A stretch of 64,000 nucleotides of DNA, taken from contig CBDDBU010000028.1 in the NCBI GenBank assembly GCA_965226045.1, positions 1,241 through 65,240 on the forward strand, in the 5' to 3' direction. Origin of the DNA: Alphaproteobacteria bacterium (GTDB lineage Bacteria > Pseudomonadota > Alphaproteobacteria > VGEJ01). The first letter of the stretch is position 1, and every line of letters starts with the position of its first letter. Under the pieces are notes generated by a model, which saw only the letters and a program-made list of their open reading frames with translations, was not told the DNA's origin and searched no databases. Positions 3,486 to 51,228 of the stretch are shown here, piece by piece. Position numbers and translations under genes: made by a program.

Positions 3486-4052
3486 TCAGGGATATGGGTC
3501 CTTCTTGACGTTGAAGGTGACCGAGATGCGGGGCCGGCGCTCTGTGTGGGGGTGCATGATGTAGAGCAGGTAGCTTGGCCAGATGACCATCAGTCCGGGT
3601 TCGGGATGGACGATGTAGCGCGTGGGAATGGCGGACCGATAAAAGTTCATCGATGCGGCCGTGTTCGGATTGAAGAGAGCGAGGGTGCCGCTATAGGGGT
3701 TGGTCTTGTCTTCGCTGCCGGGATCGACGTAGTAGGCGCCGGACCAGGTCGCGCCCGGATGAACGTGACTGCGGTGGAAATCGCTGTTGTCGTATATGTT
3801 GGCCCACATCGCGATAGACCAGTTGCTGCGCTCGGTGCGGCGGTATGTGGCGTAAATCTGGGTGCTCGCCCGCGTCACCATCGCGGCGGCGCGGTTCATC
3901 AATTCCTGAGCGTACTTGCCCCCCCCCCAGTTCTGGTAGTCCTAGCCCAATTGCCAGCCGCCGGAGGCTAGAGGCGGCTCGGTGGGCTGTGTCTTGGCCT
4001 GCTCGTAATGCGACGCTTGAGAGAGCGGTTCAACGTCGCGCTGTCGGGCCAT
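3486..4052 (-). pseudogene. 2OG-Fe(II) oxygenase-like protein (PF13759/TIGR02466-like), interrupted by an in-frame TAG
   Basis: Minus-strand reading is ATG(4052-4050)...GGWQLG-TAG(3944-3942)-DYQNWGGGKYAQELMNRAAAMV... The stop is in the same frame as the downstream 138-aa ORF, which carries the HxHPxxxWSG(A/V)YY motif. A G10 tract (C10 on +, 3919-3928) lies in the coding sequence. IS-A1 lies 48 bp upstream of the ATG. Confidence 0.6.
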
Positions 4053-4100
4053 CGGTACGTCAGTACAGGCGTCGAAAACAAGTGGATGAGCTTTTCATCC

Positions 4101-5475
4101 GAGCTATAACCGAATCTTGTGTACGGCGTTGAAATGAAGGCGGCGTATCCTGGTGATTGTTGATGTCACCACTTGAGCTAAGCCAAGGAAGGATAGGCCA
4201 TGAAAGAGAATACCGTTGTTGCTTTTCAAAACCCATCTGATTTTCAGAAAGATCCGTTGACGGAAGTCCTACAAGCTGGAGCTCGCGAGTTGTTGGCCCA
4301 AGCCGTTGAGGCCGAGGTCTCCGTGTTTTTGGGTAGCCATGCGGCGCTTGTTGACGCCGCCGGCCGCCGCCGGGTTGTCCGCAATGGATATCTGCCGGAA
4401 CGCTTCATCCAGACCGGGATCGGCCCGGTGAGCGTGCGCCAACCCCGTGTGCGGGACCGGGGGGACGGCGCCATCCGCTTCACGTCGGCGATCCTGCCGC
4501 GCTATCTGCGCCGCGCCAAGAGCCTGGAAGACCTTTTGCCATGGCTGTATCTGAAGGGCATTTCCACCGGCGACTTCGGGGAAGCCTTGGCGGCGCTCCT
4601 GGGGAGCTCCGCGCCGGGGCTTTCGGCCTCCACGATCACCCGGCTGAAAGAGGTCTGGGGGGTTGAGGCGGAGCGCTGGCAACGGCGCGACCTCACGGCC
4701 AAGCGCTACGTCTATTTCTGGGTGGACGGCATCTATTTCAGCGCCCGCATGGAGGAAGAGAAGCAGTGCATCCTGGTGATCGTCGGGGCCACGGACAAGG
4801 GACAGAAGGAACTGATCGCCATCGCCGACGGCTATCGCGAAAGTGAGCAGTCCTGGCTCGAAGTTCTGCTCGATCTCAAGCGGCGCGGCCTTGAAATGGG
4901 TCCGCAACTGGCGCTCGGCGACGGCGCGCTCGGCTTCTGGAAGGCGCTCCGCCAAGTCTACCCAGGCGCCCGCGAGCAACGCTGCTGGGTTCACAAGACG
5001 GGCAACGTCTTGAACAAGCTGCCCAAGGGTCTGCAAAAGAAAGCCAAGGGGCGCCTGCAAGACATCTGGATGGCCGAAACCAGGAAGGATGCCGAGAGCG
5101 CCTTCGACTTCTTCCTGGAAGCCTACGGGCCGAAGTACGACAAGGCCGCGGCCTGCCTGGCCAGGGACCGCGACGTCCTGCTGACGTTCTACGACTTCCC
5201 CGCCGAGCACTGGAAGCATGTACGCACGACCAACCCCATCGAGAGCACGTTCGCCACGGTTCGTCTGCGCACCTACCGGACCAAGGGCTGCCTGTCGCGC
5301 AAGACGGCGATGGCCATGGTCTTCAAACTATGCCAGTGCGCTCAGAGAAAATGGAGAAAACTCGATGGATCGAACCATCTCGCCGAGATCATTCGCGGCG
5401 TCAAATTCGTAGATGGAGAACGCCAGGATCGCGCCGCCGCATGATCAGCCCATACACAACTTTTGACAATAGCTC
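4101..5475 (+). mobile_element. IS256-family insertion sequence, copy A1 (1375 bp), with a 9-bp TSD TTTTCATCC
   Basis: Ends were defined by comparison with the identical copy A2. Imperfect terminal IRs are GAGCTATAACCGAATCTTGTGTA (left) and TACACAACTTTTGACAATAGCTC (right). Direct repeats sit at 4092-4100 and 5476-5484. Confidence 0.9.
4200..5444 (+). CDS. IS256-family (mutator-type) transposase
   Basis: 414 aa, mutator-type DDE transposase by sequence pattern. Identical at protein level to 27341..28585 (-). Confidence 0.9.
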   Translation: MKENTVVAFQNPSDFQKDPLTEVLQAGARELLAQAVEAEVSVFLGSHAALVDAAGRRRVVRNGYLPERFIQTGIGPVSVRQPRVRDRGDGAIRFTSAILPRYLRRAKSLEDLLPWLYLKGISTGDFGEALAALLGSSAPGLSASTITRLKEVWGVEAERWQRRDLTAKRYVYFWVDGIYFSARMEEEKQCILVIVGATDKGQKELIAIADGYRESEQSWLEVLLDLKRRGLEMGPQLALGDGALGFWKALRQVYPGAREQRCWVHKTGNVLNKLPKGLQKKAKGRLQDIWMAETRKDAESAFDFFLEAYGPKYDKAAACLARDRDVLLTFYDFPAEHWKHVRTTNPIESTFATVRLRTYRTKGCLSRKTAMAMVFKLCQCAQRKWRKLDGSNHLAEIIRGVKFVDGERQDRAAA

Positions 5476-5584
5476 TTTTCATCCTCTATGCTAGCTATCC
5501 AGTTCACCTCTATTGCTCGACTGCGGTCAGGTTGCCGCGGGCGCGACACCATGTTTGAAATGGGCTCGTTGGAGACCGATCCTT

Positions 5585-6622: not shown

Positions 6623-6636
6623 TAGAGCGCTGATAG

Positions 6637-9247: not shown

Positions 9248-9628
9248 ATGCCCAGCCAACCCGTGATCCCCAAAGGCGCCGCGCCGCCGCTCGCGCCGTA
9301 TTCGCCTGGAACGCGCGCCGGCGACACCGTGTACGTTGCCGGCACTGTCGCCCTTGACGGTGAGGGCAACGTTGTCGGCGTCGGGGATATCCGGGCCCAG
9401 ACGCGTCATGTCCTCGAGTCGGTCAAGGCGGTGATCGAGGCGGCGGGCGGAAGCCTCGCCGATGTCGCGTTCAATCAGATATTTCTCAAGGACTACGCCG
9501 ACTACGCCGGCATGAACGAGGTGTACCGCGAGTACTTCTCCGCCGACCCACCAGCTCGCTATTGCATCAAGGCGGACCTCGTCAAGCCGGAGTTTCTGGT
9601 CGAGATCGCCTCGACCGCCCACCGCTAG
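9248..9628 (+). CDS. ridA: RidA/YjgF-family reactive-intermediate (enamine/imine) deaminase
   Basis: 126 aa with the typical RidA pattern. RBS caggag lies 8 nt upstream. The stop TAG (9626-28) lies inside the CTAG TSD of IS-C. Confidence 0.8.
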
Positions 9629-9708
9629 CAGCCTGTCGGACTTGAGCCGGGAGTCGAAATAGGATTCGATGGTATCAGTTGATTTGCCCGCGCGTGATGG
9701 AGGCCGTC

Positions 9709-11067
9709 ATGAGCAATTTCCGACCGGTCGACCGGGAGACGGGGTTTCTGCTGCCGCCGTCGGTGGAGGAATGGCTTCCCGAGCGGCATCTGGCGCGCTT
9801 CGTGGTCGAGGTGATCGAGCAGTTGGACCTCTCGGCGTTCGTGAAGGCCTATCGCGGCTCGGGCTCGGCGTCCTATCACCCGAGCATGCTGCTGGGGCTT
9901 CTGGTCTACGGCTACGCCACGGGGGTGTTTTCGAGCCGCAAGTTGGAGCGCGCGACCTATGATTCTGTCGCTTTCCGCTTCATCGCGGCCAACGATCATC
10001 CCGACCACGATACCATCGCCGCGTTCCGGCGGCGTTTTCTCGACCGGATCGAAGGGCTGTTCGTCGAGGTGCTGCTGCTGGCCCGGGAAGCCGGGGTGCT
10101 GAAGCTCGGCACGGTGGCGCTGGACGGCACCAAGGTGCACGCCAACGCGAGCCGGCACAGCGCGCTGTCGTGGAAACACGCCTGCGAGCTCGAAGCCCGG
10201 TTGAAGGCCGAGGTGGCGGAGTTGATGGCGTTGGCGGAGGCGGCCGATGGGGCGGATGTGCCCGACGGGATGTCGGTGCCCGAGGAACTGGCCCGGCGCG
10301 AGGATCGTCTGGCCCGCATCGCCGAGGCTAAGGCGGTGATCGAGGCGCGGGCGCGCGAACGCCTTGAGCGGGAACGGGCCGAGTACGAGGCGAAGCTCGA
10401 GGCGCGCGCGGAGAAGGCCGAGAAGACGGGCCGCAAGCCGGGCGGCCGTCCACCCGAGCCGCCGGTGGCCGGGCCCGGGCCGAAGGACCAGGTCAATCTG
10501 ACCGACGCGGACTCGCGCATCATGCCGGTGGCCGGCGGCGGCTTCGAACAGGCCTACAACGCCCAAGCCCTGGTGGCGGCCGACAGCCTGCTGGTGGTCA
10601 CCAACGACGTGGTCCAGGCCCCCAACGACAAGCGGCAAATCGAGCCGGCGCTGGAAGCGCTCGCCCGCCTTCCCGAGGCGCTGGGCGCGCCCGAGACCCT
10701 GCTGGCGGACAGCGGCTACTTCAGCGAGGCCAACGTGAACGCCTGCGCCGAGGCCGAGATCGCGCCGTTGATCACGCCCGGCCGGGAACGCCATCATCTC
10801 TCCTGGAAGGACCGCTTCGCCGGCGCGCCGCCGCCCCCGGAGAACCCGACGCCGCTGGAAGCGATGACACATCGACTGGCGACGCCCGAGGGCCGGCAAC
10901 TCTACGCCCTGCGCAAGCAAACGCCGGAACCGGTGTTCGGCATCATCAAATCGGCCATGGGCTTCCGCCAGTTCTCGCTACGCGGCCTGGACAAGGTCAC
11001 GGGCGAATGGAACCTGGTGACCCTGGCCTGGAACATAAAGAGAATGTTCACCTTGCAATACGCTTGA
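9709..11067 (+). CDS. IS1182-family (IS5-like) DDE transposase
   Basis: 452 aa. N-terminal InsH-like domain, a coiled-coil middle, DDE region (LLADSGY...) and a C-terminal NIKR motif. Confidence 0.8.
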   Translation: MSNFRPVDRETGFLLPPSVEEWLPERHLARFVVEVIEQLDLSAFVKAYRGSGSASYHPSMLLGLLVYGYATGVFSSRKLERATYDSVAFRFIAANDHPDHDTIAAFRRRFLDRIEGLFVEVLLLAREAGVLKLGTVALDGTKVHANASRHSALSWKHACELEARLKAEVAELMALAEAADGADVPDGMSVPEELARREDRLARIAEAKAVIEARARERLERERAEYEAKLEARAEKAEKTGRKPGGRPPEPPVAGPGPKDQVNLTDADSRIMPVAGGGFEQAYNAQALVAADSLLVVTNDVVQAPNDKRQIEPALEALARLPEALGAPETLLADSGYFSEANVNACAEAEIAPLITPGRERHHLSWKDRFAGAPPPPENPTPLEAMTHRLATPEGRQLYALRKQTPEPVFGIIKSAMGFRQFSLRGLDKVTGEWNLVTLAWNIKRMFTLQYA

Positions 11068-11237
11068 GCAGGCGGCCGGACTCCGTACCTCGCGAAAAGG
11101 AATAAGAGTATGCTCGCCTTGCGGCACGCGCGAGCAAGCGAACGTACTTCGTGCCCTCACGAGAGGGCATAAGAGTATACTCACCCTGCGGTACGCGCGG
11201 CCAAGCGACCGCACTCCGTGTCCTCACGAAAGGCGCT
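11038..11237 (+). repeat. Three tandem ~67-bp units at the 3' end of IS-C. The first overlaps the last transposase codons.
   Basis: Units at 11038-11103, 11104-11170 and 11171-11237 are ~70-80% identical (AAGAG(A/T)ATG(T/C)TC.CC.TGC...). Confidence 0.8.
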
Positions 11238-11323
11238 CGATCCCATGACCTCTCCACATCGCGATCCGTCCACACCCATTCTCGCGGACTTCAGTCCGAC
11301 AGGCTGCTAGGGGGCGCCCCGGT

Positions 11324-13890: not shown

Positions 13891-14797
13891 CGATGGCCTC
13901 CAGGCACTCGGGTTCACCGAGGTCGGGAGCATGCCCTCGGCGTGGGACGGTCAGCCGCATCAAGTCCGGCTTGACCTCGGCCATGCGCTCGAAGGTGGCC
14001 GGACTCAAGACATCGGAATTCTCGCCGCGGATCGCCAGCGTGGGTATGTGGCCGAGAGCACCGAACCAACGCCACGCGTAGGCTGGGGCGCCGCCGGATT
14101 CCTTGAGGGCGCGCCCGACCCGAACGTCGTGGTCCAAACGTAGCACCCCACCGTCATCGGCAACGAAGGTCTGGTGAGCGATGCGGTCCCAGTCGGCGTC
14201 GGTCCCATCGGGACGGGCGGGGCCCCAGGCATCGTGGCAATATGTGGCGGCGGCGGCCCAGTCGCGTGGCGTCTCCGCCTTGCCGACGTAGTTGGCGATG
14301 CGTTCGCGTCCCCCCGCCGCCGCGTCGGGTCCAATGTCGTTTAGGACGACGCCGCGCAAACACGCGGGGCGCGCCACCGCCAGCGCCATGGCCATGAGTC
14401 CGCCCGCCGAGGTCCCGATCACCACTACCGCGCCGAGGGCGGCGACCGTGAGAAGATCGAGGAGATCGGAGAGGTGGGTGCGCGGCGTGTAATTGCGATA
14501 GTCGGGGTCGTAGGCGGAGCGTCCGCGACCGCGATAGTCCGGGCACACCACCCGCCGGTCCGACGCGTAGCGCAGCGCCAGCGCGTCGAAGTCCTTCGAG
14601 TTGCGGGTAAGACCCGGCAGACAAAGCAGCGGTATCCGCCCGCTCGCCGGATGGCCGTACTCGCGATAGAACCCGTACTCGCGATAGAACAAAATCAGCC
14701 CATCCTGGGCGCTAAATCGCCGCTCCCGAACCGCGACCGGCGCGGTCCCGTGACTCGCTCCGGCGCCGGTCGCGGTTAGTTCAGCCAGCGCCGACAA
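13868..14797 (-). CDS. Alpha/beta-hydrolase (Ser-nucleophile esterase/lipase type)
   Basis: GTSAGG nucleophile elbow. A TTG start overlaps the stop of the HAD gene (start uncertain). Contains a perfect 18-bp in-frame tandem duplication (FYREYG twice). Confidence 0.55.
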   Translation of the reverse strand: MSALAELTATGAGASHGTAPVAVRERRFSAQDGLILFYREYGFYREYGHPASGRIPLLCLPGLTRNSKDFDALALRYASDRRVVCPDYRGRGRSAYDPDYRNYTPRTHLSDLLDLLTVAALGAVVVIGTSAGGLMAMALAVARPACLRGVVLNDIGPDAAAGGRERIANYVGKAETPRDWAAAATYCHDAWGPARPDGTDADWDRIAHQTFVADDGGVLRLDHDVRVGRALKESGGAPAYAWRWFGALGHIPTLAIRGENSDVLSPATFERMAEVKPDLMRLTVPRRGHAPDLGEPECLEAIDDFLSQL

Positions 14798-15476
14798 CGT
14801 CCGGCAACGGATCAAGCGTCCGTACCTCGACCGCAGGTTCCCCAGGGATGTTCTCGCGCGGCTGGGCGAAACGATTGACCCAGACCACCTGATAGCCAAA
14901 CGCCGCCGCCGCCGCCGCGTCCCAAGCATTTGACGATTGAAACGACATGCGGGCCGCCGGTAGGCCCAGCCGATCGCATGCGAGCTGATAGACGCTTGGG
15001 TGCGGCTTATACACGCCGACCTCCTCGACCGAGAGGAGAGCATCAAAACTGGCGCTGATGCCCGCGTTGGCGGCTGCGGCCTCTAACATTCGCGGCGATC
15101 CATTGGACAGAATAGCGGTCTTCATTCCCGATTCCCGCAATCGTTCGAGCACGCCCGCGACCTCAGGATAGGCATCGAGGCTCAGGTACAGCTCCATGAG
15201 TCTCTGGCGAAGCGCACTGTTGTCGATGCGCAGGCTCGCCATCGCATAGTCGAGCGCGTCCCCCGTCACCTGCCAAAAGTCCACGTGTCGCCCCATCAGG
15301 GCGCGGAGCCAGGTGTATTGAAGTTGCTTCGACCGCCACACTTCCGCGAGGCGGTCGGCGTCATCGCCCAGGGCATCGCGGCACCGCCGAGCGGCGGCCG
15401 TCACGTCAAACAGCGTGCCGTACGCGTCGAACACACAGGCGCGGACGTCGTCAAGTCGAGTCTCAGTGTCTGCCAT
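14781..15476 (-). CDS. Haloacid dehalogenase type II (L-2-haloacid dehalogenase-like HAD hydrolase)
   Basis: 231 aa. N-terminal DAYGTLFDV motif I plus SNGS and downstream motifs typical of type II HAD dehalogenases. Confidence 0.7.
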   Translation of the reverse strand: MADTETRLDDVRACVFDAYGTLFDVTAAARRCRDALGDDADRLAEVWRSKQLQYTWLRALMGRHVDFWQVTGDALDYAMASLRIDNSALRQRLMELYLSLDAYPEVAGVLERLRESGMKTAILSNGSPRMLEAAAANAGISASFDALLSVEEVGVYKPHPSVYQLACDRLGLPAARMSFQSSNAWDAAAAAAFGYQVVWVNRFAQPRENIPGEPAVEVRTLDPLPDVVGAG

Positions 15477-15598
15477 ATGATGCCGCGCCTGACCTTAGCG
15501 AGCCCGAGACTAGGGAACCATGCGCGCGTCGGGCCAGCGCGGCTGACACATGACTCGATCGTTGGCGCCGAGACGTTACCTGTAGACATGCAGGTTCT

Positions 15599-17048
15599 CG
15601 GAGATGTCCCGGTCGATGTTGAAAAGTTGAGGTAGGTGTCGCTCTCCTGGAGCCGTTAGGCTCCGGGTGCTGCAAACCCAAGAGGGAGAACGACACCATG
15701 GGAAAGAATATCCGTAGTTCCAGTAGCCCGAAAGCCCTTGCCACCTCGTTTCCTATGCCGCCGCTGGCAGACGCGATGGACGCAGTCCGTCTCAGCGTGG
15801 ATCGGTTCTGTCTCCTGGCCGGGGTCGAGGCCTTGGCCGAGATGATGGAGGAGGACGCCACGACCGTGTGCGGGGCCCGACATCGTCGCCATGGGAACCG
15901 TCGGGGTTATCGCTGGGGCCATACGCAGAGCGAGATCGGCTACCACGGCGGCCGCGTGAAAGTGCAGCGGCCACGGGTTCGCGACCATGCTGGCAAGGAG
16001 GTGGGTTTGGAGAGCTGGCAGGTGCTGCGCGACGGCAACCTGTTGCTCGAGTGGGCGCTCAACCTGATGGTGCTGAACGTGTCGACCCGCAAGTACCACC
16101 GCGCGGTCCGTCTGCCCGAGGGCGACCTGGCGAAAGCGCGTGGCGACGGCACCTCGAAGTCGGCCGTTTCCCGGCGCTTTGTGGCGCTGTCGCGCAAGAA
16201 GATGAAGGCCTGGCTTGCCTCGGACCTCTCGGAGCTCGACCTGCTGGTCATCCAGATCGACGGTCTGCATGTCGGCGACCATGTCTTGGTGGCGGCGATC
16301 GGCGTCGATGGCAACGGCGACAAGCATGTCCTGGCCGTGGTCGAGGGGGCGACGGAGAACACTGTCGTCGTCCAGGCCTTGCTCGACAATCTCCTCGCCA
16401 GGGGGCTCGATCCGACGCTGCCCCGGCTGTTCATCGTCGATGGCGCGAAGGCGCTCAGCAAAGCGATCCGCAACACCTTCGGTGTGGCCGCCGCCATCCA
16501 GCGCTGCCAGGTCCACAAGGGCCGTAACATCATCGAGCGCCTGCCCCTGCATTTGCATGCGAGCGTCAAGAAGGCGCTCCGTCAGGCCTGGGACCAGGAC
16601 GACGCAGACAAGGCCGAACGGCTGCTGCGCAACCTGGCCCGGCGTCTGGAGCATGAGGAACCGGGCGTCTCGGGCAGCATCCTGGAGGGGCTGGACGAGA
16701 TACTCACCGTCATCCGCCTCGGCCTGCCGCACGAACTCCGGCGCTCGCTCGCCTGCACCAACATCGTCGAGAACGCGCTCGGCACGGTGCGCCAGGTCAC
16801 CCGCAACGTCAAACGCTGGAGACACGCCGAGATGGCGCTCAGATGGACCGCCGCCGGCCTGCTGGAGGCCCAGAAAACCTTCCGTCGCCTCAAGGCCTAT
16901 CGTCAGCTGCCCATCCTCCGAAATGCTCTCCAGGAACACTTGAGAAAGGCTCAGGCCGACAGTGCCATTGAAACCATCATGAAGGCAGCATAGCATCATC
17001 AACCAGCGACGCCTGCCCCACGAATTTCAACAGAGATAGGGACATCGC
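15599..17048 (+). mobile_element. IS256-family insertion sequence, copy B1 (~1450 bp), flanked by the 9-bp direct repeat CAGGTTCTC
   Basis: Ends were defined by comparison with copy B2. IRs are GGAGATGTCCCGGTCGATGTTGAAAAGTTG and, by reverse complement, GATGTCCCTATCTCTGTTGAAATTCG. Direct repeats at 15590-15598 and 17049-17057. Confidence 0.85.
15698..16993 (+). CDS. IS256-family (mutator-type) transposase, type B
   Basis: 431 aa, mutator-type DDE transposase by sequence pattern. ~99% identical to 25810..27195 (-). Confidence 0.9.
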   Translation: MGKNIRSSSSPKALATSFPMPPLADAMDAVRLSVDRFCLLAGVEALAEMMEEDATTVCGARHRRHGNRRGYRWGHTQSEIGYHGGRVKVQRPRVRDHAGKEVGLESWQVLRDGNLLLEWALNLMVLNVSTRKYHRAVRLPEGDLAKARGDGTSKSAVSRRFVALSRKKMKAWLASDLSELDLLVIQIDGLHVGDHVLVAAIGVDGNGDKHVLAVVEGATENTVVVQALLDNLLARGLDPTLPRLFIVDGAKALSKAIRNTFGVAAAIQRCQVHKGRNIIERLPLHLHASVKKALRQAWDQDDADKAERLLRNLARRLEHEEPGVSGSILEGLDEILTVIRLGLPHELRRSLACTNIVENALGTVRQVTRNVKRWRHAEMALRWTAAGLLEAQKTFRRLKAYRQLPILRNALQEHLRKAQADSAIETIMKAA

Positions 17049-18977
17049 CAGGTTCTCAATGACACGCTGTACGAAGTTGCGGGTTTCCGCGACGGGGATC
17101 AATTCGATCCAGTCGATAACGTCGATTTCACCCCGTCGCGGGTCGCCCCAATTGCGAAGCCAGCGGCGGGTTCGTGTGCCGCCGGCGTTGTACGCCGCGA
17201 GGGCCAGTACGTAGGAGCCGTCGTAGGCGTCCACCAGCGTGCCGAGGTAGCTGCCGCCGAGCCGTCAGGTTGTAGTCTATATCGTCGAGCAAGCGTCGTT
17301 CGCTATAGCCAATCCGCAATCGCCGCGCCTCGGACTTTGCTGTCGCCGGCATCACCTGCGTCAAGCCACGCGCGCCGGCGGAACTTATGGCCCCCTGGTT
17401 GAAGTCACTCTCCTGCCGCGCGACCGCCAACACCAGCGCCGGCTCGACGGCAAAGTCGTCCGGCAGGTCGAGGTGCGGGTAGGCGGGCCCGACGAGGAAG
17501 ACGCCGCAGCGCAGCGCGAGCTTGGCGGCCGAGATGGCCAGCTCGGGCCGACCCACGCGCTGCGCCAACGCGCCCACCAGGGCATGCTCCCCCGGCGTAT
17601 CGACGATGTCCGCGAGGCGGAGCAGGAACGAACGTTGCAGGTAGCGCTGCCCGAGTTGATGGAGGAGAAGAACGACGTCGACAAGCTCGCGCCGCCTGAA
17701 GCGCGCAACATCCTCCTCGGTGGGGTGGGGGTCGGCGGGAATATCCAGCGCCGCCGCGCCGTTCGCGTGCGCGTTGGCCAGCTGGCCGTAGAACGTCGCT
17801 GGGTGCGTGGCGGCCTGAGCGTACCAGCCATGCGCGAGCGCCGTCTCTCCTATCGCCGTGGCGGCGCTGGCCGCCCAATATCCGGCGCGCGCCTTGCTTA
17901 TCGGGAATCTGGCGAGCGCGTGCATGCGTTCGAAGTGAGTCAGCGCGGTACGGCCGTCGCCGAGGAATCGGAGCGCTATCCAACCGGCCAGCCATTCCGC
18001 CTCCGACGCCGGGCCACGCTCGACCTGGCCGTGCTCGGCAGCCAGCCGATACGCCTCCGAGACGCTCCCATCCTCTAACGTCTCGCGAAGCTGCAAGTGC
18101 CGTTCGAGCCACCACTTGTCGGCCCGAATGAGATCGGCGGGCGTATCGGCCAACAACTCCCGTGCGCGATCGTGGAAGCCCTTGCGCCGCTGCCAGCAGA
18201 CCCGCTCATAGATCAATCCGGCATGACGCTTCAGCTCGGCGGGAACCTTCGCGATCGCCTCATCGACGGTGGGACCCGACAGCATCAGGAACAGGCGCGG
18301 CTCGCCGAGCAGCCCCTGGTCGGCGCTGACCCGTGGCAGCATATGCCGGGCCGGCCGTAGGCGCTCGTCCCACAGCAGGCGATCGAGGCGACCCGCGTCG
18401 ATTTCTGGACCCAACACCTTCTTGTAGCGGAGATAGAACCGGCGCTCCTCGGCCGCTCTCAAATCGCCGTTGACCCATGCGTCGCGGAGGGCGGCGTCAC
18501 TGTCGACGATCAAGCCGGCCTCGCGGAGTGCTTCGGCAAAGGCCGCTCGTGCCGGACCGGATAGCGGGGGATGAGAGCGGAACCAATCGATGGTCTCCGC
18601 TGCCGGCAGGGCCAGCGCCGCGCGCGCCACGGTGCGCAGCAATGCGGCTGAGCTTGGCCAGTCCTCGCTTTTGGCGATGAAGTCAGCGATCTCGCGGAAT
18701 GGCACCTGCGCCCCGGGCCGTGCAGTGGTACCAACGAATTATCTTCGCGGCCAGCGGGTATCCTACCCCGGCCGCCAGCCCATGGGCCGAGGTCCACCGA
18801 CCCGAGTTGGCGCTCTTGAACGCGCGCAAGGCCCGCAGCATATCCGCCTTCGAAAGGCCGGAGCGGGCAACGCTGTCATTGGCTTTCAGTGAAGATCGGG
18901 CTTTCGGCGAGGACCGGCGTCGCCGCGACGATCAGAATAGTGCTGACCAGGATGGCTATGGATCTCGGGCTGTTCAC
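17049..18977 (-). pseudogene. slt: Soluble lytic murein transglycosylase (Slt70 family), decayed by at least three frameshifts and 3' IS insertion
   Basis: Reading pieces lie in three frames. Signal peptide VNSPRSIAILV...AE, then ...ADMLRALRAFKSANSGRW...PLAAKIIRWYHCTARGAGA in a second frame, then FREIADFIAKSEDWP... in a third. A +1 at ~17265 (DYNL|RLGGSYLGTLVDAYDGSYVLALAAYNAGG) returns to the first. The native last codons HVYR-stop lie at 15576-15589 beyond IS-B1. The IS TSD duplicates codons ENL. Confidence 0.7.
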
Positions 18978-20053: not shown

Positions 20054-20515
20054 CAGCCGGCGCCGCGGCGTCTGGTAACGGTCAACCGACGAGCTCGCTT
20101 CGAGTACACCATCGATGACCGGATCGAAGCCGGGCTCGTGCTGGTGGGTACCGAAGTCAAGAGTCTGCGCGAGGGTAAGAGCGATATTGGCGATGCCTAC
20201 GCGGCCCCGCGCGGCGGCGAGCTCCATCTTTTGAATGCCTACATTCCCGAGTACGGAGCCGCCACTCGCTTCAATCACGAGCCTCGGCGCCCGCGCAAGC
20301 TCCTACTGCATCGCCGCGAAATGGAGCGATTGTCCGGGGCGGTGGCCCGCAAGGGCGTCACGCTTGTTCCGCTCTCGATTTATTTCAACGAGCGCGGCCG
20401 GGCGAAGGTCGAACTCGGGCTCGCTCGCGGCAAGCAGTTGCACGACAAGCGGGCCGCCGACAAGGACCGTACGTGGCAGCGCGACAAGGCCCGCATCATG
20501 CGCGAGGAGCGCTAG
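20054..20515 (+). CDS. smpB: SsrA-binding protein SmpB. The start codon is unresolved (no canonical start in frame).
   Basis: Frame reads ...[42 protein letters not shown]... back to the dapA stop without an ATG/GTG/TTG. Confidence 0.6.
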
Positions 20516-21147
20516 TCCCCGTCGATCAATTCCCGGACGCGGGCAACGACGGCGTCAAACATCTCGACCGTGAGCCGGCCGGTATTGGTGTTGTAGCGGG
20601 AACAATGGTAGCTATCGGCCAATGTGAACCCGCCGGGCGGGGAGTGCAGGGCACCGTGGGCGAAGGGGTACGCGGCCTGTCGTGCGTCCAGTGCGGCGAC
20701 CACACTACGGTGCGCGATCGTGCCAAGCGCGAGAATCGCTCTCAGGTTGGGGAGAGACGCAATCTCGTGGCGTAGGAAGGAGCGGCAGGTGTTGATTTCC
20801 GTGGCGGTCGGGCGATTTTGCGGCGGCACACATCGAACGGCGTTGGTGATCCGGCACCGAGCGAGTGTGAGGCCATCATCGGCGGACCGATCATAGTGGC
20901 CGCGCGCGAAGCCATAGGCCGTCAATGTGCGATAGAGGAGGTCGCCGGCGAAGTCGCCGGTGAAGGGCCGGCCTGTTCGGTTGGCGCCCGACACCCCCGG
21001 CGCCAAGCCGACGATCAGCAATGCCGCGTCGCAACCTCCGAAGGCGGGAACGGGCGCGTTGTGCCAGTCGGGTTTGGCCTCCCGGTTGACGCGGCGGAAC
21101 TCGGCTAAACGCGGGCATCGGTTGCAGTCGGTCGGCGGTTCGGTCAC
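20512..21147 (-). CDS. Uracil-DNA glycosylase, family 4/5-like (Fe-S type, UdgB-like)
   Basis: CNRCPRL cysteine motif and [25 protein letters not shown] motif. A GTG start is assumed. Confidence 0.65.
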
Positions 21148-21246
21148 TAGGGGCCTAGGATAACCATGTTGCCTCGTCACGCTCCGTTGGGCGGCTGGCG
21201 CCAAACATAAGCCGCAGCGAAGGGGGGGCAAGGGGGATCGCGGCAG

Positions 21247-21753: not shown

Positions 21754-21857
21754 TGGGGCCACGGCTCATGGGGCCACGGCCGGGGGGTGCACTTGCGCCC
21801 CTGGGAACGACCGAATATTCTTGACACTGAAACGATTTAGCGGTTGGAGCGACATCG

Positions 21858-41413: not shown

Positions 41414-42882
41414 CAGCCCGTTGAAAAAGGCGTCATTGACCGGGTTTCACGCCACGGCGAAGCATATCGCGGCGAAGGCGGTTTCGCCATCCTCCGAGAC
41501 GATGAGGACGATCTGAACGACCAGGACGGCTCCAGCGGGCGTAACAAGCACGAACAAGGCGCCAATTCCGCCCGCCACGGCCTCCTTCGGGGTGCCGGCG
41601 CCGATGAGTTGGCGCATCAGCAACGATAGGTTGTGGCCGGCGACGTGAAGCAGGTATCGCTTGTGCACGTTCTCGCGGCCCCGAAGCCAGGTCCGGCGCA
41701 TACCGCCGCGATCGAGGTTGTGGGCAAAGGAGCGCTCGACGATCTCGGCGCGCAGCTTGAAGGCTTCCCTGGCCACCCCCGATAACAGCCGGGTCCGGTT
41801 GTTGGTGACCGCCCGGCGAGCCGCATCATCTCCGTGCCAGCGCGCAAAACCCTTCTGCTTGGGCTCGGAGATCCGGCTCTTCCAGGGGCCGTCGTCGAGC
41901 GCCTTCAAGACCAACCGTGAGTGGTAGCCCTTATCGGTCACACATTCGGCCGGATCTTCGGCCGTCGGCGCCACATCCACCGCCTCGAGGTTTGCCTCGG
42001 CCGCCGCCAGGGTCTTGGGAAGCGTTGTCGTATCGCCCTCGTCGGCCGGGTGCAGCTCCGCCGCCACCACCGCGCCGGTGTCCAGATCCACCGCGTGCTC
42101 GGGCTTGTAGGCCAGGTGCGTGGTGCCGTCCTTCATCTTGGCGATCTTGGCCTCGGGGTCGCTCCTGGAAACCCAGTCCTGGTTCGAGAGCTTCTTGCCC
42201 TTGCGCTTGCGGTCCAGACGCGCCAGGTCCTCAGCCGTGGGTGTCTCGATACCGCTCTCCTGGGCCAAGCGCTCCAGCATCCCCCGGTAACCCTCGCCCG
42301 TGTCCCTCCGCACGATGTTGCGCAGCGCCGCGTTGGCCTCCATGGTCGAGGCATCCACCCCGATGCGCTCGCCCTTCACCAGACCCGCCTCGGCGATCAG
42401 CGCCAGGACCCAGTCAAACACCGCCGTGTGGACTTCATGGGGCAGGCGCGCGCGGGTCCGTGACAGCCAGGAATGGTCCGGCACCCGTTCCCGCATCTCC
42501 AACAGCAGGAACTCCCGTAGCGACAGGGAATCCGAGCAGCGCCACTCCAGCCCACGCTCAGAGTCGATACCCTCGAAGTAGCCCACCAGGTGCATACGGA
42601 AGTAGCGCCCGGGTGGCACCGAAGGCGCCCCCATCCTGGCCGCGTAATAGGGCTGGCAGACCGCCTCGGCGAAGCCGTCGAAGCCGCCCTCGATCAGTAC
42701 CAACTGCAGGCGGTCGTAAAATACATGACCTGGCGAGCGCGGCATCTCCGACCAGCTCACCATCAAGTCCCCCTGACGATCCTTCTGCTGTCCCATCGCC
42801 ATCAGCGAACCCCCCTTCAGGCCAGGACACCAGAGAATCAGACCATGCCGACTTCGTCCAGGGAAGACTTCGTCAACGGGCT
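41414..42882 (-). mobile_element. IS5/IS1182-like insertion sequence 'IS-D' (~1469 bp) with a 4-bp TSD TTAG, inserted between motA and motB
   Basis: IRs are CAGCCCGTTGAAAAAGGCGTC and, by reverse complement, CAGCCCGTTGACGAAGTCTTC. TTAG sits at 41410-41413 and 42883-42886. The motA stop TAA is formed within the right TSD. Confidence 0.8.
41447..42802 (-). CDS. IS5/IS1182-family DDE transposase
   Basis: 451 aa with an InsH-like N-terminal domain and a DDE domain. Confidence 0.75.
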   Translation of the reverse strand: MAMGQQKDRQGDLMVSWSEMPRSPGHVFYDRLQLVLIEGGFDGFAEAVCQPYYAARMGAPSVPPGRYFRMHLVGYFEGIDSERGLEWRCSDSLSLREFLLLEMRERVPDHSWLSRTRARLPHEVHTAVFDWVLALIAEAGLVKGERIGVDASTMEANAALRNIVRRDTGEGYRGMLERLAQESGIETPTAEDLARLDRKRKGKKLSNQDWVSRSDPEAKIAKMKDGTTHLAYKPEHAVDLDTGAVVAAELHPADEGDTTTLPKTLAAAEANLEAVDVAPTAEDPAECVTDKGYHSRLVLKALDDGPWKSRISEPKQKGFARWHGDDAARRAVTNNRTRLLSGVAREAFKLRAEIVERSFAHNLDRGGMRRTWLRGRENVHKRYLLHVAGHNLSLLMRQLIGAGTPKEAVAGGIGALFVLVTPAGAVLVVQIVLIVSEDGETAFAAICFAVA

Positions 42883-42883
42883 G

Positions 42884-43740
42884 TTAGGCACCGTCCGAGC
42901 TGGCTATCGCCTCCTCGAGTTCGGCGAAACTCGGACGTTGATGGGAGAACAGTGTTTTCCGCGCGAACTCGATCGAGACGGCCGGGGCATAGCCCTGAAG
43001 ATGGGCGAGCAGGCCGGCTTCGATGCATTGATAGTACTTGGAGTCCGCGTCGGCCCACATCTCGAGGTTGCGGCTGCTGGGGCTCACGAATCCGTACGCC
43101 AACAAGATGCCGAGGAAGGTACCGACCAACGCGCCACCAATCAGCTTGCCGAGGATCTCGGGTGGGTCGGTGATGTGCCGCATCGTTACGACCACCCCAA
43201 GGACCGCCGCCACGATGCCGAATGCCGGCAGGCCATCACCAACATTCGTGACGGCTCCCGCCACCGCCGTCGCCTCGCCGTGGTGGGTCTCGATGTCCTC
43301 GTCGATCAACGCCTCTAATTCGTGGGGATTCTCGGTCCCCATGGTAATCAGTCGCAGGTAGTCGCACAGAAAATGAACGGCGTGCTTGTTCTTCATGAAC
43401 TTGGGGTATTCTTGGAATAGGGGACTCTCTTCTGGCGTCTCGATGTGCGTTTCCAGCGCCAACATCCCCTTCGACTTGGCGAGCCGAAAGATCGCGAACA
43501 AGAGCGTCAGAAGTTCGACATAGGCCGCCTTGTTGTGGGGGGGGCTTTGAGAACTCGCCCGGGACTCTTGAACACCGCGACAATTAGAGTCTTCGGATTG
43601 GAGAGAAGAAAAGCGCCGAATGCGCCGCCGCAAATTATCAGCACCTCGAAGGGCTGCATCAGCACGGTGAGGTCGCCGTGGGGCATATAGCCGCCCAACA
43701 CGGACCCGATCATCACCACTACGCCAATTATCGCCCACAT
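42884..43740 (-). pseudogene. motA: Flagellar motor stator protein MotA, frameshifted at a G8 homopolymer
   Basis: The N-terminal 95 aa (MWAIIGVVVMIGSVLGGYM...) lie in one frame and the rest (...KAAYVELLTLLFAIFRLAKSKG...) in another. The junction is at G8 (43527-43534). A ninth G would restore ...VLKAPPHNKAAYVELL... Confidence 0.7.
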
Positions 43741-46252: not shown

Positions 46253-46291
46253 GGGGATGTAAGCCCTCCAGAACCCTCGCACGTTAGCAAA

Positions 46292-47485
46292 TCAACTGGC
46301 GCCTTGAAACGTCGGCCCCAAGTGACGGAGCTCCTCGACAATCGATTCGCGGTCGGCGTCGAGGTCCGGCGCCGCGCCCCGTGACGTGGGATCGATGAGG
46401 CCGGGCACCTTGAGCGGATTTCCGGCGACCTTCAGTGCCGCCGCACGAGGATCATCGATATCGACTAGCATGTTCCGGGCGGCCACATGGGGATCGTCCA
46501 CAAGATCGGCCATGTTGTTGATCGGCCCGCAGGGGATGCCCGCGGCCAACAGCAGCGCGAGCCATTCGTCGGATGTCCTCTTTCGCGTCTCGGCCTCGAT
46601 CGCTTCAGTGAGTGCCTCGACGTGGTGGGTCCGTGAATCGTTGTCCGCGAAACGTGGGTCCTTGGCGAGATCGGTGCGCTCAAGACAGGTCGCGAATTTG
46701 CCGAACATGAGGTCGTTTCCACAGGCGACGACGACGTGACCGTCACGGGTGGGAAAAGAAGCGAACGGGGTGATCGACGGATGTCGCGCGCCGATCGGGC
46801 CAGGCGCCTCGCCAGTGGCGCAAAAGCGGGCGATGGCATTTTCGAGTATCGCGACCTGGCAATCCAACATCCCGAGGTCGATCATGCGCCCGGCGCCTGT
46901 CCTGTGGCGATCGTGAAGGGCTGCGGTGATGCCGACCACGCCATAAAGCCCCGCTGTAATGTCGCCGATCGACGATCCGACCCGGGTCGGAGCGCCGCCC
47001 GGATGTCCGGTCAGGCTCATGATGCCGCCCATGGCCTGAACCACCATGTCGTAGGCGGGCCGCTGGGCGTACGGGCCGGTGCGTCCAAAGCCCGAGAGGG
47101 CGAGATAGATCAGGCGCGGGAAGCTATCGCGAAGGCGATCCCAACCATATCCGAGGCGCTCGAGGACGCCGGGCCGGAAGTTCTCCACCAGCACGTCGGC
47201 GTGCTCAAGCAATCGCTCGAAGACTTGCTGATCGGCCTCGTTCTTGAGATCGAGAGCGATGCTCTCCTTGCCGCGGTTCAGCGACATGAAATAGGCGGAG
47301 CGCTCCTCTATGAACGGCCCGAACGAGCGCGAGTCGTCACCGCCGGCCGGCGATTCGACCTTGATGACGCGGGCGCCCAGGTCCGCGAGCACCATGGTGC
47401 AATACGGACCGGCGAGCACGCGGGTAAGATCGATGACCGTGGTGCCGGTGAGGGGGCCGGCGACGGGGGATGGCCGCAATGTCAT
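46292..47485 (-). CDS. CoA-transferase family III (CaiB/BaiF) protein
   Basis: 397 aa. N-terminal GPLTGTTVIDLTRVLAGPYCTMVLADLGA Rossmann-like motif and the catalytic Asp region. Confidence 0.8.
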   Translation of the reverse strand: MTLRPSPVAGPLTGTTVIDLTRVLAGPYCTMVLADLGARVIKVESPAGGDDSRSFGPFIEERSAYFMSLNRGKESIALDLKNEADQQVFERLLEHADVLVENFRPGVLERLGYGWDRLRDSFPRLIYLALSGFGRTGPYAQRPAYDMVVQAMGGIMSLTGHPGGAPTRVGSSIGDITAGLYGVVGITAALHDRHRTGAGRMIDLGMLDCQVAILENAIARFCATGEAPGPIGARHPSITPFASFPTRDGHVVVACGNDLMFGKFATCLERTDLAKDPRFADNDSRTHHVEALTEAIEAETRKRTSDEWLALLLAAGIPCGPINNMADLVDDPHVAARNMLVDIDDPRAAALKVAGNPLKVPGLIDPTSRGAAPDLDADRESIVEELRHLGPTFQGAS

Positions 47486-47574
47486 GGCGAGGTCGGGGTC
47501 ATGGCGAGGTCGGCTGTGGCAAGGTCATGGGACGATCGGCTTGGCCCGGGCTCGGGTTACATAGCGGAGGCGCC

Positions 47575-48385
47575 ATGACGCTGCAACGGACGCACACGCT
47601 CCGGCGGCCGGGCACGGAACTGCCCCGCTACAGTTCCGTGCGCCAAATGCTTGGCGAGCTGCGCCCAAGCTACCCGGTGTATTGTCTATGGCCGTCTCCC
47701 CTTGGTCAGCGCCGCACGATGGTTCATCACGCATTTTCCCGGCGAGGTTCGGTACGCCGTCAAATGCAGCCCGCATCCGTTCGTCCTCGATACGCTTCAT
47801 GCGGTCGGCATTCGCCAATTTGACACGGCATCGCTGCCCGAGATCGCTCTTATCAGCGAGCGGTACTCCGATGTCGTCAGCTATTTCCATCATCCGGTCA
47901 AGCCGCGCGCGGCGATCCACAGCGCCCGCCACGTATACGGTATTCGCCACTTCACCGTCGATTCCGAGGCCTAACTCGACACGATCACGGCCGAGACCGG
48001 CGGCGGCGATCTCGCGGTGCAGGTGAGAATAGCGACCCTGGTCACTCGCGCGGCCATCGATCTCTCCCGCAAGTTCGGAGCGCCGCCGGAAAGGGCGCCA
48101 GAGCTTCTGCGTGCGGTCGCGGCGGCCGGATACGAGCCCGGCATTTCCTTTCACGTGGGTTCCCAGTGCCTCGAACGGGATGCGTTCCGCACGGCGCTCG
48201 CGTTGACGGCGGACGTCTTGGGCGCGGCCGGCGTCGAGATAGGAGCGCTGAATGTTGGCGGCGGGTTTTCGGCGGCTTACCCGGATCTGGAAGCCGCTGA
48301 CCTCGACGCCTATACCCGCGCTATCGCGGCCGGGCTGGACGACCTTTGGCGGCCGGCGGGCTGCGCTGTTCTCTGTGAGCCGGCG
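47575..48385 (+). pseudogene. Ornithine/lysine decarboxylase (fold-III PLP decarboxylase), N-terminal part, with a +1 frameshift, an in-frame TAA and IS21 truncation
   Basis: ...RPSYPVYC, then a shift at ~47690, then LPLVSAARWFITHFPGEVRYAVKCSPHPFVL...FTVDSEA-TAA(47972-74)-LDTITAETGGGDLAVQVRIATL...GISFHVGSQ...NVGGGF...VLCEP, then the IS21 left end at 48386. Confidence 0.75.
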
Positions 48386-48588
48386 TGTCAATCGGCGTTG
48401 AACATTGACCCCCTATCGGCGTGCAATGTTGACCCCTTTGGGGATGCACGGCGGAGGTCGTACAGGTAGTCCATAGGAGGGGCCCGCGCGCGGGCCGACG
48501 CGCCCACCACGCGGCTGGCGGCGGACCGCGTGTGGGAGGTTCCTGTGGGCCCACCTGGGCGACCGGGCCGCAGGTGGATCGGTTGCCT

Positions 48589-49317
48589 TTAGGACCGATT
48601 CTTGAAGCGCCAGGAGTCGTTTCCGGTCTCGATGATCTCGCAGTGGTGCGTCAGACGATCGAGGAGCGCGGTGGTCATCTTGGCGTCGCCGAAGACGGAC
48701 GGCCATTCGCCGAAGGTCAGGTTGGTGGTGACGATGATCGAGGTGCGCTCGTAGAGCCGGCTGACGAGGTGGAACAGCAGCTGGCCTCCGGTTTGGGCGA
48801 AGGGCAGGTAGCCGAGCTCGTCGAGGATGACGAGGTCGCGCCGGGCCAGCTGATCGGCGAGCCGGCCCTGGCGGCCGGCGCGGGCTTCGGCCTCGAGCCG
48901 GTTGACCAGGTCGGCGACGTTGAAGAAGCGGCCCCGGGCGCCATCGCGGATGCAGGCCCGCGCGATGGCGACGGCGAGATGGCTCTTGCCGGTGCCGGTG
49001 CCGCCGATCAGCACGGCGTTGCGCTGGTTGGCCAGGAAGCCGCCGACCGCCAACTCGCGGACCAGCGGCTCGTTGACCGGGGTGTCGGTGAAGTCGAAGT
49101 CGGCCAGCTCCTTGGCCAGCGGCAGCTTGGCGCCACTCATCTGGTACTTGATGGATCGCGCCTGCTTGTCGGCGATCTCGGCCTTCAACAGCTCGCCGAT
49201 GATTCGCTGCATCGGATGCTGGCGCTTGAGGCCGTCGGCGAGCACCTCGTCGAACGCGTCGCGCATGCCGGCGAGCTTGAGTGCGGCCATCATCTCCAGG
49301 ACCTCATGGCGCTCCAT
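48589..49317 (-). CDS. istB: IS21 helper ATPase IstB
   Basis: 242 aa. Walker [10 protein letters not shown], Walker B DELGY. Confidence 0.85.
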
Positions 49318-50815
49318 GGCCGACCCCCCTCAAGCGGTCGTAGCGGGTGCAATCGGCCACCGGCTCAAAGCGAAGACGCAGGTTCGCGGGCGTCGGGATC
49401 GGCGCCGTCTCGGACGGCTGGCGCCGACGATTGAGGATGTTGAGCACGACGTCGGCGCTGCACACGCCGCCAGCGAGCGCCTCGGCACAGGCGGCCTCCA
49501 CCGCCGCCAGCCCATCCGCCAGCACGGCGGTGAGGATCTCGACCATCTGCCTGTCGCCGTCGTCGTGGCCGGCGAGCCGGACGCGCACGCGACCCAGGGC
49601 GCCGGGCAGCGCCCAGTCCTTGAACGGCGCGCCGTTACGAAGCGCACCGGGCTTCCTCGCCAGCACGGGCACCTAGTGCCACGGGTCATAGACGGTCTGG
49701 TCGCGGCCGAAGCGCCGGGCATGCTCGGCGACGATCTCGCCGTCCTGGCGGATGACGATGCGATCGGCGTAGGCATGGACCTCGACCGGACGGCCGACGG
49801 CGCGCGCCGCCACGCTGTACTTGTTGCTGTCGAAGCGCACCAGGCAGGTCTTCGACACCGACGCCGGGACCGCGTGGAAGCCGTCGAACGGCCCGCGATA
49901 GCCGACCAGGGACGGACGCTCGTCCTCGAACACCTGCCAGACAGTCCTGTCCTTGAACACCGGGTGGGGATGACCCCGGGCGTAGGCGACGCACTGGTCC
50001 AAGAGCCAGGCGTTGAGCTCGTCGTAGGTCTTGAAGCGCAGCCGCGGGGTGAAGAACCGACCGCGGATGATCCCGACCTGGTTCTCGACCTGCCCCTTCT
50101 CCCATCCCGCTCCCGGCGTGCATGCTGTCGGTTCGACCAGGTAGTGGCCACACATCTGCACGAAGCGCCGGTTGAACGCGCGCTCCTTGCCGATGAGGAC
50201 GGTCTGCACCGCCGTCTTCATGTTGTCGTAGATGCCTCGCCGGCAGGCACCCTGGAACAGCCGGAATGCCCGGTCGTGGGCGTCGAACACCATCTCCTGG
50301 CTCTCGCGCGGATAAGCGCGGACGAAGAACATTCGGCTGTGGCACAGCCGGACGTGCGCGACCTTGACCTTGGTCGTCACCCCCGCCAGCACCACGTACT
50401 CGTGGCTCCAGTCGAACTGATAGGCCTCGCCCGGCGAGAACACCAACGGCACATAGGTCTGCGCCGTCGATGCCGAACGGCGCCACCGCCACGCCTTGGC
50501 GTAGCGCCGCACCGCGTCGTAGCCGCCGCCATAGCCCAGACCCTCGAGGGCTTCGGAGATCCGTAGCAGCGTCAGCCGCTCCCGCTTCGACTTGGTCTCG
50601 TTGGCCTCCAGCATCCGCTCCAGCTCGGCCGTCCACGGCCCCAGCTTCGGCATCGGCTGGACCCGCCGGTCGTAGGTGAACGCCGTCGCCTGCGAACGGA
50701 TCACCTTGCGCACCGTGTTGCGCGAGACCTTCACGTCCCGCACGATCTCCTTGATCGGCTTCCCCTTGACGAAATACTCCCGCCGGATCCGCGCTATCGT
50801 CTCCACGACCAACAT
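49304..50815 (-). pseudogene. istA: IS21 transposase IstA with an in-frame amber codon (TAG at 49673-49675)
   Basis: ...QTVYDPWH-TAG-VPVLARKPGALRNGAPF... The stop and the downstream ORF are in the same frame. Family members have Tyr at this position. Confidence 0.75.
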
Positions 50816-50930
50816 CCCCCACCACCTCGTCCGCCCAAAAACGAGGTGACTTGGACTAGCCAGGCTCAGGGGGGCAAATTTGGACGCCGATCACCCCTCA
50901 ACAGGGGTCAACTTTGCACGCCGTTCCACA

Positions 50931-51228
50931 ACCAGGGCGTGCAATGGTGGCTGAGGCGGGCTCGCTGGTGGCCCAGGTCCCTTGGCGCAAGGACCGCGCC
51001 CTCTATCTCAACGACGGCATATTCGGCTGCCTCTCAGATCTCCGCGCGGACATCAAGGTAGGAGTGATGTGCCATCGCCTGGACGGCGATATGAGCGACA
51101 CGTCGGCGTCCTTTACGCTGTTTGGCCCGACTTGCGATTCGGCCGACGTGCTGGCGCACACCTGGGAGCTGCCCGTCGATACCTCGGAAGGCGATTGGGT
51201 CGAGTTCAAGCAAATGGGCGGGTACTAG
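50931..51228 (+). pseudogene. Ornithine/lysine decarboxylase, C-terminal part (continues the 47575 fragment after the IS21)
   Basis: GRAMVAEAGSLV...NDGIFG...TLFGPTCDSADVL...GDWVEFKQMGGY is the canonical ODC C-terminus (EPGR motif restored across the IS). Confidence 0.75.

Follow-up and report, generated by a model that had tools for sequence, protein, structure and literature searches.

This report concerns a 64,000-nt stretch of DNA (hereafter the window) from an Alphaproteobacteria bacterium of the GTDB lineage VGEJ01 (assembly GCA_965226045.1, contig CBDDBU010000028.1, positions 1,241-65,240, forward strand); all coordinates given are window positions. Its span 3486-51228 contains five genes that have become pseudogenes, together with seven copies of insertion sequences (ISs), among core genes that are intact. 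The core genes of the window comprise part of dnaE2, then dapA, smpB, folK, rpoZ and rsh; pdxJ, acpS, lepB, rnc, era, recO and parC; a dctQMP transporter, motAB, an acylase gene and hemB; and glyA, nrdR, a rib operon and nusB. The G+C content is 64%, and neither a tRNA scan nor Rfam at its gathering threshold found any RNA within the 64 kb. The core genes and the synteny indicate that the window comes from the chromosome of an uncultured alphaproteobacterium; a plasmid origin is unsupported, plasmid records giving only distant IS256 matches. The five pseudogenes are:

3486-4100, minus strand: 2OG-Fe(II) oxygenase pseudogene (TIGR02466 / 2OG-FeII_Oxy_5), with a TAG, a frameshift and an IS-A copy on its start codon
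11324-12806, minus strand: nhaD pseudogene, with one extra base at ~11474 and the last 56 codons shifted to another frame
15576-18977, minus strand: slt (lytic transglycosylase) pseudogene, which has an IS-B insertion, an extra base (17265) and two further frame shifts, one within 18706-18721 and a probable one at ~18872-18890
42884-43740, minus strand: motA pseudogene, with a frame shift at the G8 tract 43537-43544
47575-51294, plus strand: pseudogene of an ornithine decarboxylase-like (ODC-like) protein of the Orn/DAP/Arg decarboxylase fold, with a frameshift, a TAA, an IS21 insertion and a TAG

These pseudogenes were called by direct reading, from Pfam and NCBIfam model coordinates and, where one existed, by alignment with an orthologue. 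They account for 5 of 34 non-IS genes over the span, or 5 of 51 over the whole window, and carry one to four inactivating mutations each, some 13-15 separate events in all. The original prediction for this DNA had counted at least six nonsense or frameshift pseudogenes; five chromosomal genes stand, but the sixth, the istA gene of an IS21 element, is not an independent local event, as described below.

Near-identical DNA was retrieved by exact-protein look-ups from the ENA analyses ERZ21829562 (ctg257332l, 718 kb), ERZ28669063 (ctg5068, 680 kb) and ERZ28763718 (ctg123485, 625 kb), and from Logan assemblies of the runs ERR14231557 and ERR14231558; a fourth ENA analysis, ERZ25074053, gave IS copies only. 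Our checks of the lesions rest on these assembled contigs. Those with window genes reach at most 718 kb and none is identical to the window; with ~1 substitution per kb relative to it and a different IS content, they are taken to be sister strains and not re-assemblies of the same reads. A literature search with the assembly and run accessions gave no match. More distant relatives came from a scan with DapA (one genome per species), in which the closest match was 81% identical. The two best matches, a 2.94-Mb contig (L008, of genome CBDFKF01) and a Tara Oceans genome (L009), are unclassified alphaproteobacterial metagenome-assembled genomes, and both are syntenic with the window over ~7-30 kb.

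In the 2OG-Fe(II) oxygenase gene the in-frame TAG reported at 3942-3944 can be read directly (GGWQLG*DYQNWGGG) and is identical in two related loci (L111, L112). There is in addition a lesion that had gone unmentioned, a frameshift within 4002-4012 (~4005) that puts the N-terminal 30 codons in another frame. The C-terminal piece matches its Pfam model over positions 2-101 of 101, and the repaired protein covers TIGR02466 from 3 to 199 of 201 at 59 bits, slightly below the cut-off of 62.5. This gene also contains a C-run (3919-3928) that has ten residues in the window, nine in L111 (ctg257332l) and eight in L112 (a Logan contig).

The +1 frameshift attributed to nhaD was located by alignment with the L008 orthologue: in a tblastn comparison, L008 NhaD follows the window in one frame at 76% identity as far as ~11475, then in another frame at 86% identity from 11494 to 11327, and the extra base lies in the context cttGtcg. 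The native frame is without the last 56 residues, so that no single frame matches the model in full, and the repaired protein covers NF038006 completely (1-405 of 405, 578 bits). The lesion is identical in L004, L005 and L006. A disruption of nhaD by the neighboring IS1182 element was considered and ruled out, the element ending 14 bp downstream of the nhaD stop.

At least three frameshifts had been proposed for slt, and here the positions have partly changed. The extra base, an A, is precisely at 17265 (ctgAcgg), and a shift near 18880 is probable, signal peptide and mature part being in different frames; however, L008 Slt, which aligns to the window in three frames, is gapless from 18720 to 17266 and thereby rules out the lesion proposed at ~18270, the second shift being in fact that within 18706-18721 (~18712). 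The Pfam SLT domain is consequently divided between two frames (10-62 and 71-110), and copy 1 of IS-B, flanked by a 9-bp duplication, is inserted four codons short of the stop. The slt lesions are common to L004-L006, with L004 carrying one extra indel at 18821.

The motA gene does shift frame at a G8 tract, as had been noticed, but the tract is at 43537-43544 and not at 43527-43534. It is a C8 on the coding strand, and a run of either 9 or 6 would restore the frame. The DNA encodes pieces of 77 and 193 aa in two frames, the first with MotA_N 1-70 and the other with MotA_N 64-91 and MotA_ExbB; the same split is found in three other assemblies (L108, L109, L110). A repaired MotA covers TIGR03818 from 1 to 281 of 282 at 366 bits (cut-off 304), and no single frame does so; motA is therefore classed as a pseudogene of that family. 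Between motA and motB there is an IS5/IS1182-like element, whose insertion point is the stop codon of motA. We considered an IS hit within the coding sequence and ruled it out: the insertion is on the stop codon itself, with the target-site duplication (TSD) TTAG, and is absent from three other assemblies. No homopolymers in the 64 kb reach 8 nt apart from the motA tract and the C-run at 3919-3928, both of them within pseudogenes.

In the ODC-like gene, the frameshift expected at ~47690 was placed at 47692-47710 and the TAA at 47972-47974 is indeed in frame, between positions 92 and 106 of Pfam Orn_Arg_deC_N. The IS21 element divides the gene in its middle, at 48386/50930. What had been taken for the end of the gene, 51226-51228, is instead an in-frame TAG (GGY*NSLATHFNGF) that precedes the conserved THFNGF motif. 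The Pfam pieces (15-92, then 106-241/247, and C-terminally 6-95 of 95) show that both Orn_Arg_deC_N and Orn_DAP_Arg_deC are present; the best NCBIfam match is lysA at 110 bits, far under its cut-off of 298, and the predicted assignment goes as far as "ODC-like". All of these lesions are identical in L002, and the 3' TAG is also in L003.

The original prediction placed seven IS copies in the span, and all seven were located and matched to a family:

4101-5475, plus strand: IS-A copy 1, IS256 type, 1375 bp, with an intact 414-aa transposase gene; 100% identical to copy 2
9625-11310, plus strand: IS1182-family element, with a 452-aa transposase gene at 9709-11067
15600-17049, plus strand: IS-B copy 1, IS256 type, with an intact 431-aa transposase gene and an 8-9-bp TSD, (C)AGGTTCTC
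25844-27293, minus strand: IS-B copy 2, IS256 type, 99% identical to copy 1 with a 3-bp indel
27310-28684, minus strand: IS-A copy 2, IS256 type, with an 8-bp TSD, CCGGTATT
41414-42883, minus strand: IS5/IS1182-like element, with a 451-aa transposase gene and the TSD TTAG
48386-50930, minus strand: IS21-family element, with ends TGTGG...TGACA and an intact istB at 48589-49317

Together they amount to 11.35 kb, or 17.7% of the window, and six of the seven have intact transposase genes. IS-A (ends GAGCTAT...) and IS-B (ends GG(A/C)GATGTCCC) belong to the IS256 family, with NF033543 scores of 319.5 and 224.1 bits respectively (cut-off 150), a Pfam Transposase_mut match, terminal inverted repeats and 8-9-bp TSDs. 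The 9-bp TSD of IS-A copy 1, TTTTCATCC (4092-4100 and 5476-5484), includes the ATG of the oxygenase gene; no clear TSD was found when the flanks of IS-B copy 2 were inspected. This last copy and IS-A copy 2 are only 16 bp apart in the ~90-bp spacer between acpS and lepB, where they interrupt no gene. The IS-A copy of this pair ends 30 bp upstream of the essential lepB, and the same IS-B/IS-A pair is present in ctg257332l (L001). With 363.9 bits to NF033551 (cut-off 270), the element at 9625-11310 is a member of the IS1182 family; its 18-bp terminal inverted repeats are CTAGCAGCCTGTCGGACT and AGTCCGACAGGCTGCTAG, and it is present in neither L008 nor L009. Its 3' part, downstream of the transposase gene, has a 67-bp unit repeated 2.4 times (78% match, 11072-11233) for which there is no Rfam match. 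The element at 41414-42883 reaches only 164 bits to the same model, hence the label IS5/IS1182-like. Four genes had been described as physically hit by ISs. This holds in full for the ODC-like gene, which is split in the middle, but the other three insertions are at the margins of genes, namely the oxygenase start codon, the end of slt and the motA stop codon.

The IS21 element deserves separate treatment. Its two genes have the expected domains (rve and Mu-transpos_C_2 in istA; IstB_IS21 3-236 of 238 in istB) and their homologues are named IS21 family transposase, but istA is interrupted by a TAG at 49673-49675. This stop, reported earlier as a local lesion, does exist (YDPWH*VPV, replacing the conserved Tyr of the WHYVPV found in 503-aa homologues); it is nevertheless no independent decay event at this locus, being inherited by a whole IS21 sub-family. 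It is present in every IS21 copy inspected, 14 in all (10 loci in ERZ25074053 together with L002, L003, L005 and L006). These copies are 99.9-100% identical, with IstA split into a piece of 380 or 353 aa and another of 120 aa. An intact 503-aa IstA with WHYVPV exists at 99% identity (P0002, with 306 member sequences), and on another contig of the ctg257332l sample there is an IstA (P0017) that retains the Tyr and has a different, C-terminal frameshift. More widely, contigs as long as 9 Mb encode IstA proteins at 97-99% identity. The window copy is thus a family member but probably a non-autonomous one. The TAG shared by all IS21 copies led us to consider programmed readthrough or a functional split IstA, which we do not favor in view of the intact, Tyr-bearing 503-aa IstA at 99% identity, in the same sample too. 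The simplest reading is that the TAG-bearing copies would constitute a defective sub-family, mobilized or copied with IstA from intact sister copies. Defective IS derivatives are known to spread with transposase supplied in trans, for example miniature inverted-repeat transposable elements (MITEs), which are non-autonomous. The TAG sub-family resembles such elements in its occurrence at 14 or more loci beside intact 503-aa IstA genes; unlike MITEs, its copies are of full length with an intact istB, and their mobilization in trans is our inference. It would be a small, clean example of a defective element that has spread despite a nonsense codon in its transposase, apparently by using that of intact relatives. 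A TSD was found in one of the eight IS21 copies checked (L107, CTTCT), the window copy having at best CCGG(C/G)G, and this scarcity would point to recombination between copies or to mis-joins.

The long genes that had been singled out as reading through cleanly (parC, rsh, the acylase gene, the DASS transporter gene and the part of dnaE2) are all intact, and of 51 genes listed as intact, IS genes included, 50 parse as clean open reading frames (ORFs) with a normal stop, the remaining one failing merely because of a slip in its coordinates. The stops of the 50 are TGA in 31, TAG in 10 and TAA in 9; since TAG terminates 10 of the 50 clean genes and the in-frame stops co-occur with frameshifts, reassignment or readthrough of TAG as a property of the genome is ruled out.

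The lesions themselves are true mutations and not assembly errors, as the original prediction had supposed for the nonsense codons. Every one is identical in every other assembly that covers it (one to four assemblies per lesion, from four ENA and two Logan assemblies in all). Moreover, four of them are base substitutions to stop codons, and the indels are mostly outside homopolymers (11474, 17265 and ~18712), the 1-nt insertions at 11474 and 17265 being in a non-repetitive context. Runs of 6-7 nt in the intact genes are in frame in 16 of 16 cases. That sister strains have the same lesions supports the idea that these would predate the divergence of the sampled strains.

Comparison with a close relative had been suggested as a check, and L008 and L009 were used for it. 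In L008 slt and nhaD are each in a single frame, acpS adjoins lepB and there is no IS at any of the window IS sites; 20.8 kb of L008 hold a single IS-like gene, an ORF of IS630 type located between folK and rpoZ, a different place from those of the window ISs. The syntenic region of L009 has no IS and its nhaD is intact, slt not being at this locus. These two syntenic regions of ~20 kb thus hold zero or one IS, and no pseudogene was found among the compared L008 genes (slt and nhaD checked explicitly), versus 5 of 34 genes in the span. Because the relatives display the ancestral state, the IS insertions and frameshifts are derived.

The ISs, unlike the lesions, are not constant from strain to strain: their sites differ between strains that are ~99.9% identical. 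The element between motA and motB is in the window strain only, being absent from L001/L109, L110 and L108, where the empty site has a 4-bp overlap (the target), and an IS1595 beside the IS1182 element is found only in ctg257332l and ctg5068. At 20515-21860 the window retains the ancestral order smpB-UDG-folK-rpoZ, as do L008 and L009; in the three ENA contigs that cover the junction (L004, L005, L006; 1-4955), clusters of IS3, IS21, IS630-like and IS1595 elements directly follow smpB. In ctg257332l and ctg5068 there are ~43 kb more before rpoZ than in the window, and the synteny of ctg5068 breaks at the IS21 in the ODC-like gene. Beyond the window, the exact IS-A transposase was read on 21 contigs (54 index blocks), often several times per contig, and IS-A splits other genes there, including those for a response regulator and a malonyl-CoA decarboxylase. 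For IS-B, the index lists the exact transposase in 358 blocks, Mb-scale contigs among them, and 10 or more additional loci have the TAG-bearing IS21 variant. The IS expansion put forward originally is therefore multi-copy well beyond the window and polymorphic between close strains, from which we infer that IS activity continues today.

All of this is very probably to be read as a genome in the midst of an IS expansion, with pseudogenes building up under relaxed selection. In such a scenario the five dispensable-looking genes would have been inactivated in the past, when the sampled strains had not yet diverged, and would since have drifted, gathering more frameshifts, stop codons and ISs while escaping deletion. 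The early reductive evolution that was proposed for this lineage receives qualified support: the syndrome expected of IS expansion with relaxed selection is there, namely real lesions and many near-identical IS copies that are polymorphic between close strains, but there is no AT drift, the G+C content being 64%. This is one of several points that weigh against our interpretation. The motA shift is in the sole G/C run of 8 nt or more other than the variable C-run of the oxygenase gene, and a systematic homopolymer miscall is possible there; we rate this lesion as real, if less secure than the others. Some of the apparent rearrangements could be mis-joins at repeats. The pseudogene density was measured in this window alone, the other loci having been sampled, with bias, around IS copies. 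Finally, the Mb-scale contigs with IS-B may belong to another organism, in which case the copy numbers would be community-wide and not genome-wide.

As to the ecological cause, it may be host restriction, a population bottleneck or a community-wide IS outbreak. The last of these is the alternative that survives best, though we consider it a somewhat doubtful one: the IS load would stem from horizontal exchange of ISs in a dense habitat, with the pseudogenes as collateral damage, and not from host restriction or a bottleneck of this lineage. Two contigs of ERZ21829562, ctg258064l (3.63 Mb) and ctg257983l (2.41 Mb), have IS-B and the IS5-like element at 99.7-99.8% identity to the window, and their only comparable genes, an SHMT-like/PhyH pair, are ~72% identical to those of the window; the IstA proteins on the very large contigs mentioned above go in the same direction. 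However, these two contigs may be either other parts of one large genome that carries paralogues or another organism that shares the ISs, and pseudogenes with two to four point-mutational hits each require relaxed selection and not IS activity alone. The loci read on them (L116-L123) are extremely IS-dense and have arrays of TPR-guanylate cyclase genes. Somewhat tentatively, then, the case might be described as an undescribed, marine-type lineage, seen in at least five assemblies, in which IS256, IS1182, IS5-like and IS21 elements are still moving, in which insertions, IS-mediated rearrangements and multi-hit decay could be put in temporal order, and whose ISs, shared at 99.7% identity or more with other genomes of the community, would amount to a community-wide epidemic.

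It is unlikely that the decay, while real, is only local, with the window as a plasticity zone or IS hotspot of a free-living genome that is ordinary elsewhere. The ISs do cluster (the pair between acpS and lepB; IS1595 beside IS1182), and it is only the 64 kb of the window that were examined without bias. Yet this region is core chromosome (parC, rsh, dapA, smpB, the rib operon, glyA, hemB), syntenic with the relatives; on other contigs, 0.2-3.6 Mb in length, the same ISs recur in numerous copies and split genes, and ten 21-kb loci around IS-B have on average about one IS-related gene per 4-5 kb. Still less likely is it that the motA tract is a phase-variation switch caught in its motility-OFF state and not a product of decay. 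One extra G would restore the frame and homopolymers of this length are rare in the window, but the tract has the same length in all four assemblies, and motA and motB of the window strain are, besides, separated by an IS. As for the stops and frameshifts being consensus errors of a long-read metagenome assembly in genes that are intact in the cells, such an explanation could draw on contig names that resemble metaMDBG output, on the mere 3-12x coverage of some related contigs, on the C-run that varies in length among three assemblies and on the odd insertions of 18, 21 and 32 bp in ctg257332l, but it is scarcely credible beside substitutions to stops, insertions in non-repetitive DNA, lesions shared by assemblies from different samples that differ in substitutions and ISs, and ~46 other genes free of frameshifts, their 16 runs of 6-7 nt included.

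The syndrome itself, IS expansion with pseudogene accumulation, is already well known. In Shigella, the expansion of IS1, IS2, IS4, IS600 and IS911 accompanies genome degradation (Hawkey et al. 2020, PMC7373316). The likeness to our case, drawn from the data of a 64-kb window, is in the parallel expansion of several IS families, in IS sites that vary by strain within a population and in the loss of dispensable functions through both IS insertions and point pseudogenes while core genes are intact, in a genome that is, or in our case may be, not yet small. The differences are in the families, here IS256, IS1182, IS5-like and IS21, and in the organism, an uncultured alphaproteobacterium from metagenomes. 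The luminous symbionts of deep-sea anglerfish have transposases as 28-31% of their coding sequences, very many pseudogenes and a reduction described as "ongoing" (Hendry et al. 2018, PMC6020299); their genomes are ~50% reduced relative to those of free-living relatives, and motility genes have been kept (PMC6020299). The lineage of the window is similarly a marine one with a very high IS density, many pseudogenes and ISs still on the move, but unlike these symbionts it has a broken motA. Mobile-element proliferation with massive gene inactivation has been reported in Sodalis glossinidius (PMC3091646), and IS-linked pseudogene formation in 'Nostoc azollae' (PMC4369082). As in those two, recognizable multi-hit pseudogenes remain in place beside proliferating ISs; both of those, however, are documented host-restricted symbionts, whereas here host restriction is a hypothesis.

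If the pattern were genome-wide, this lineage would be a natural snapshot of the earliest stage of genome degradation, with an IS bloom under way and genes for motility, wall turnover, ion transport and polyamines just dead. The main value of the case is in its co-occurring strains, which are distinguished by individual IS events or rearrangements and with which the order and rate of such events could be measured outside a few pathogens and insect symbionts.

A few minor features of these sequences may be added. L008 has a DUF2817 gene (2022-3122) between its CCP-like gene and ridA, the equivalents of window positions 9194 and 9248, that neither the window nor L009 possesses. At the oxygenase gene of ctg257332l, the IS-A copy is longer by ~170 bp (L111 8897-9064, ~4604 in the window), which splits its transposase into ORFs of 141 and 282 aa. 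In the same strain (L002), a 21-bp insertion, GGCACGCGCGAGCAAGCGAAC, lies in the IS21 leader (14948-14968, ~50810 in the window); the only other match to it is within the IS1182 element, at window 11123-11143, so either a templated insertion or an assembly artefact is possible. The hemB gene of this strain has an 18-bp tandem duplication (14219-14236, ~51490 in the window) and a 32-bp insertion (~14410-14441, ~51316 in the window), with an altered C-terminus. The window has two exact tandem duplications of the same kind as that in hemB: one of 18 bp (x2, 14655-14690), in frame within an alpha/beta-hydrolase gene, and one of 17 bp (x1.9, 47481-47513) across the start codon of a CoA-transferase gene.

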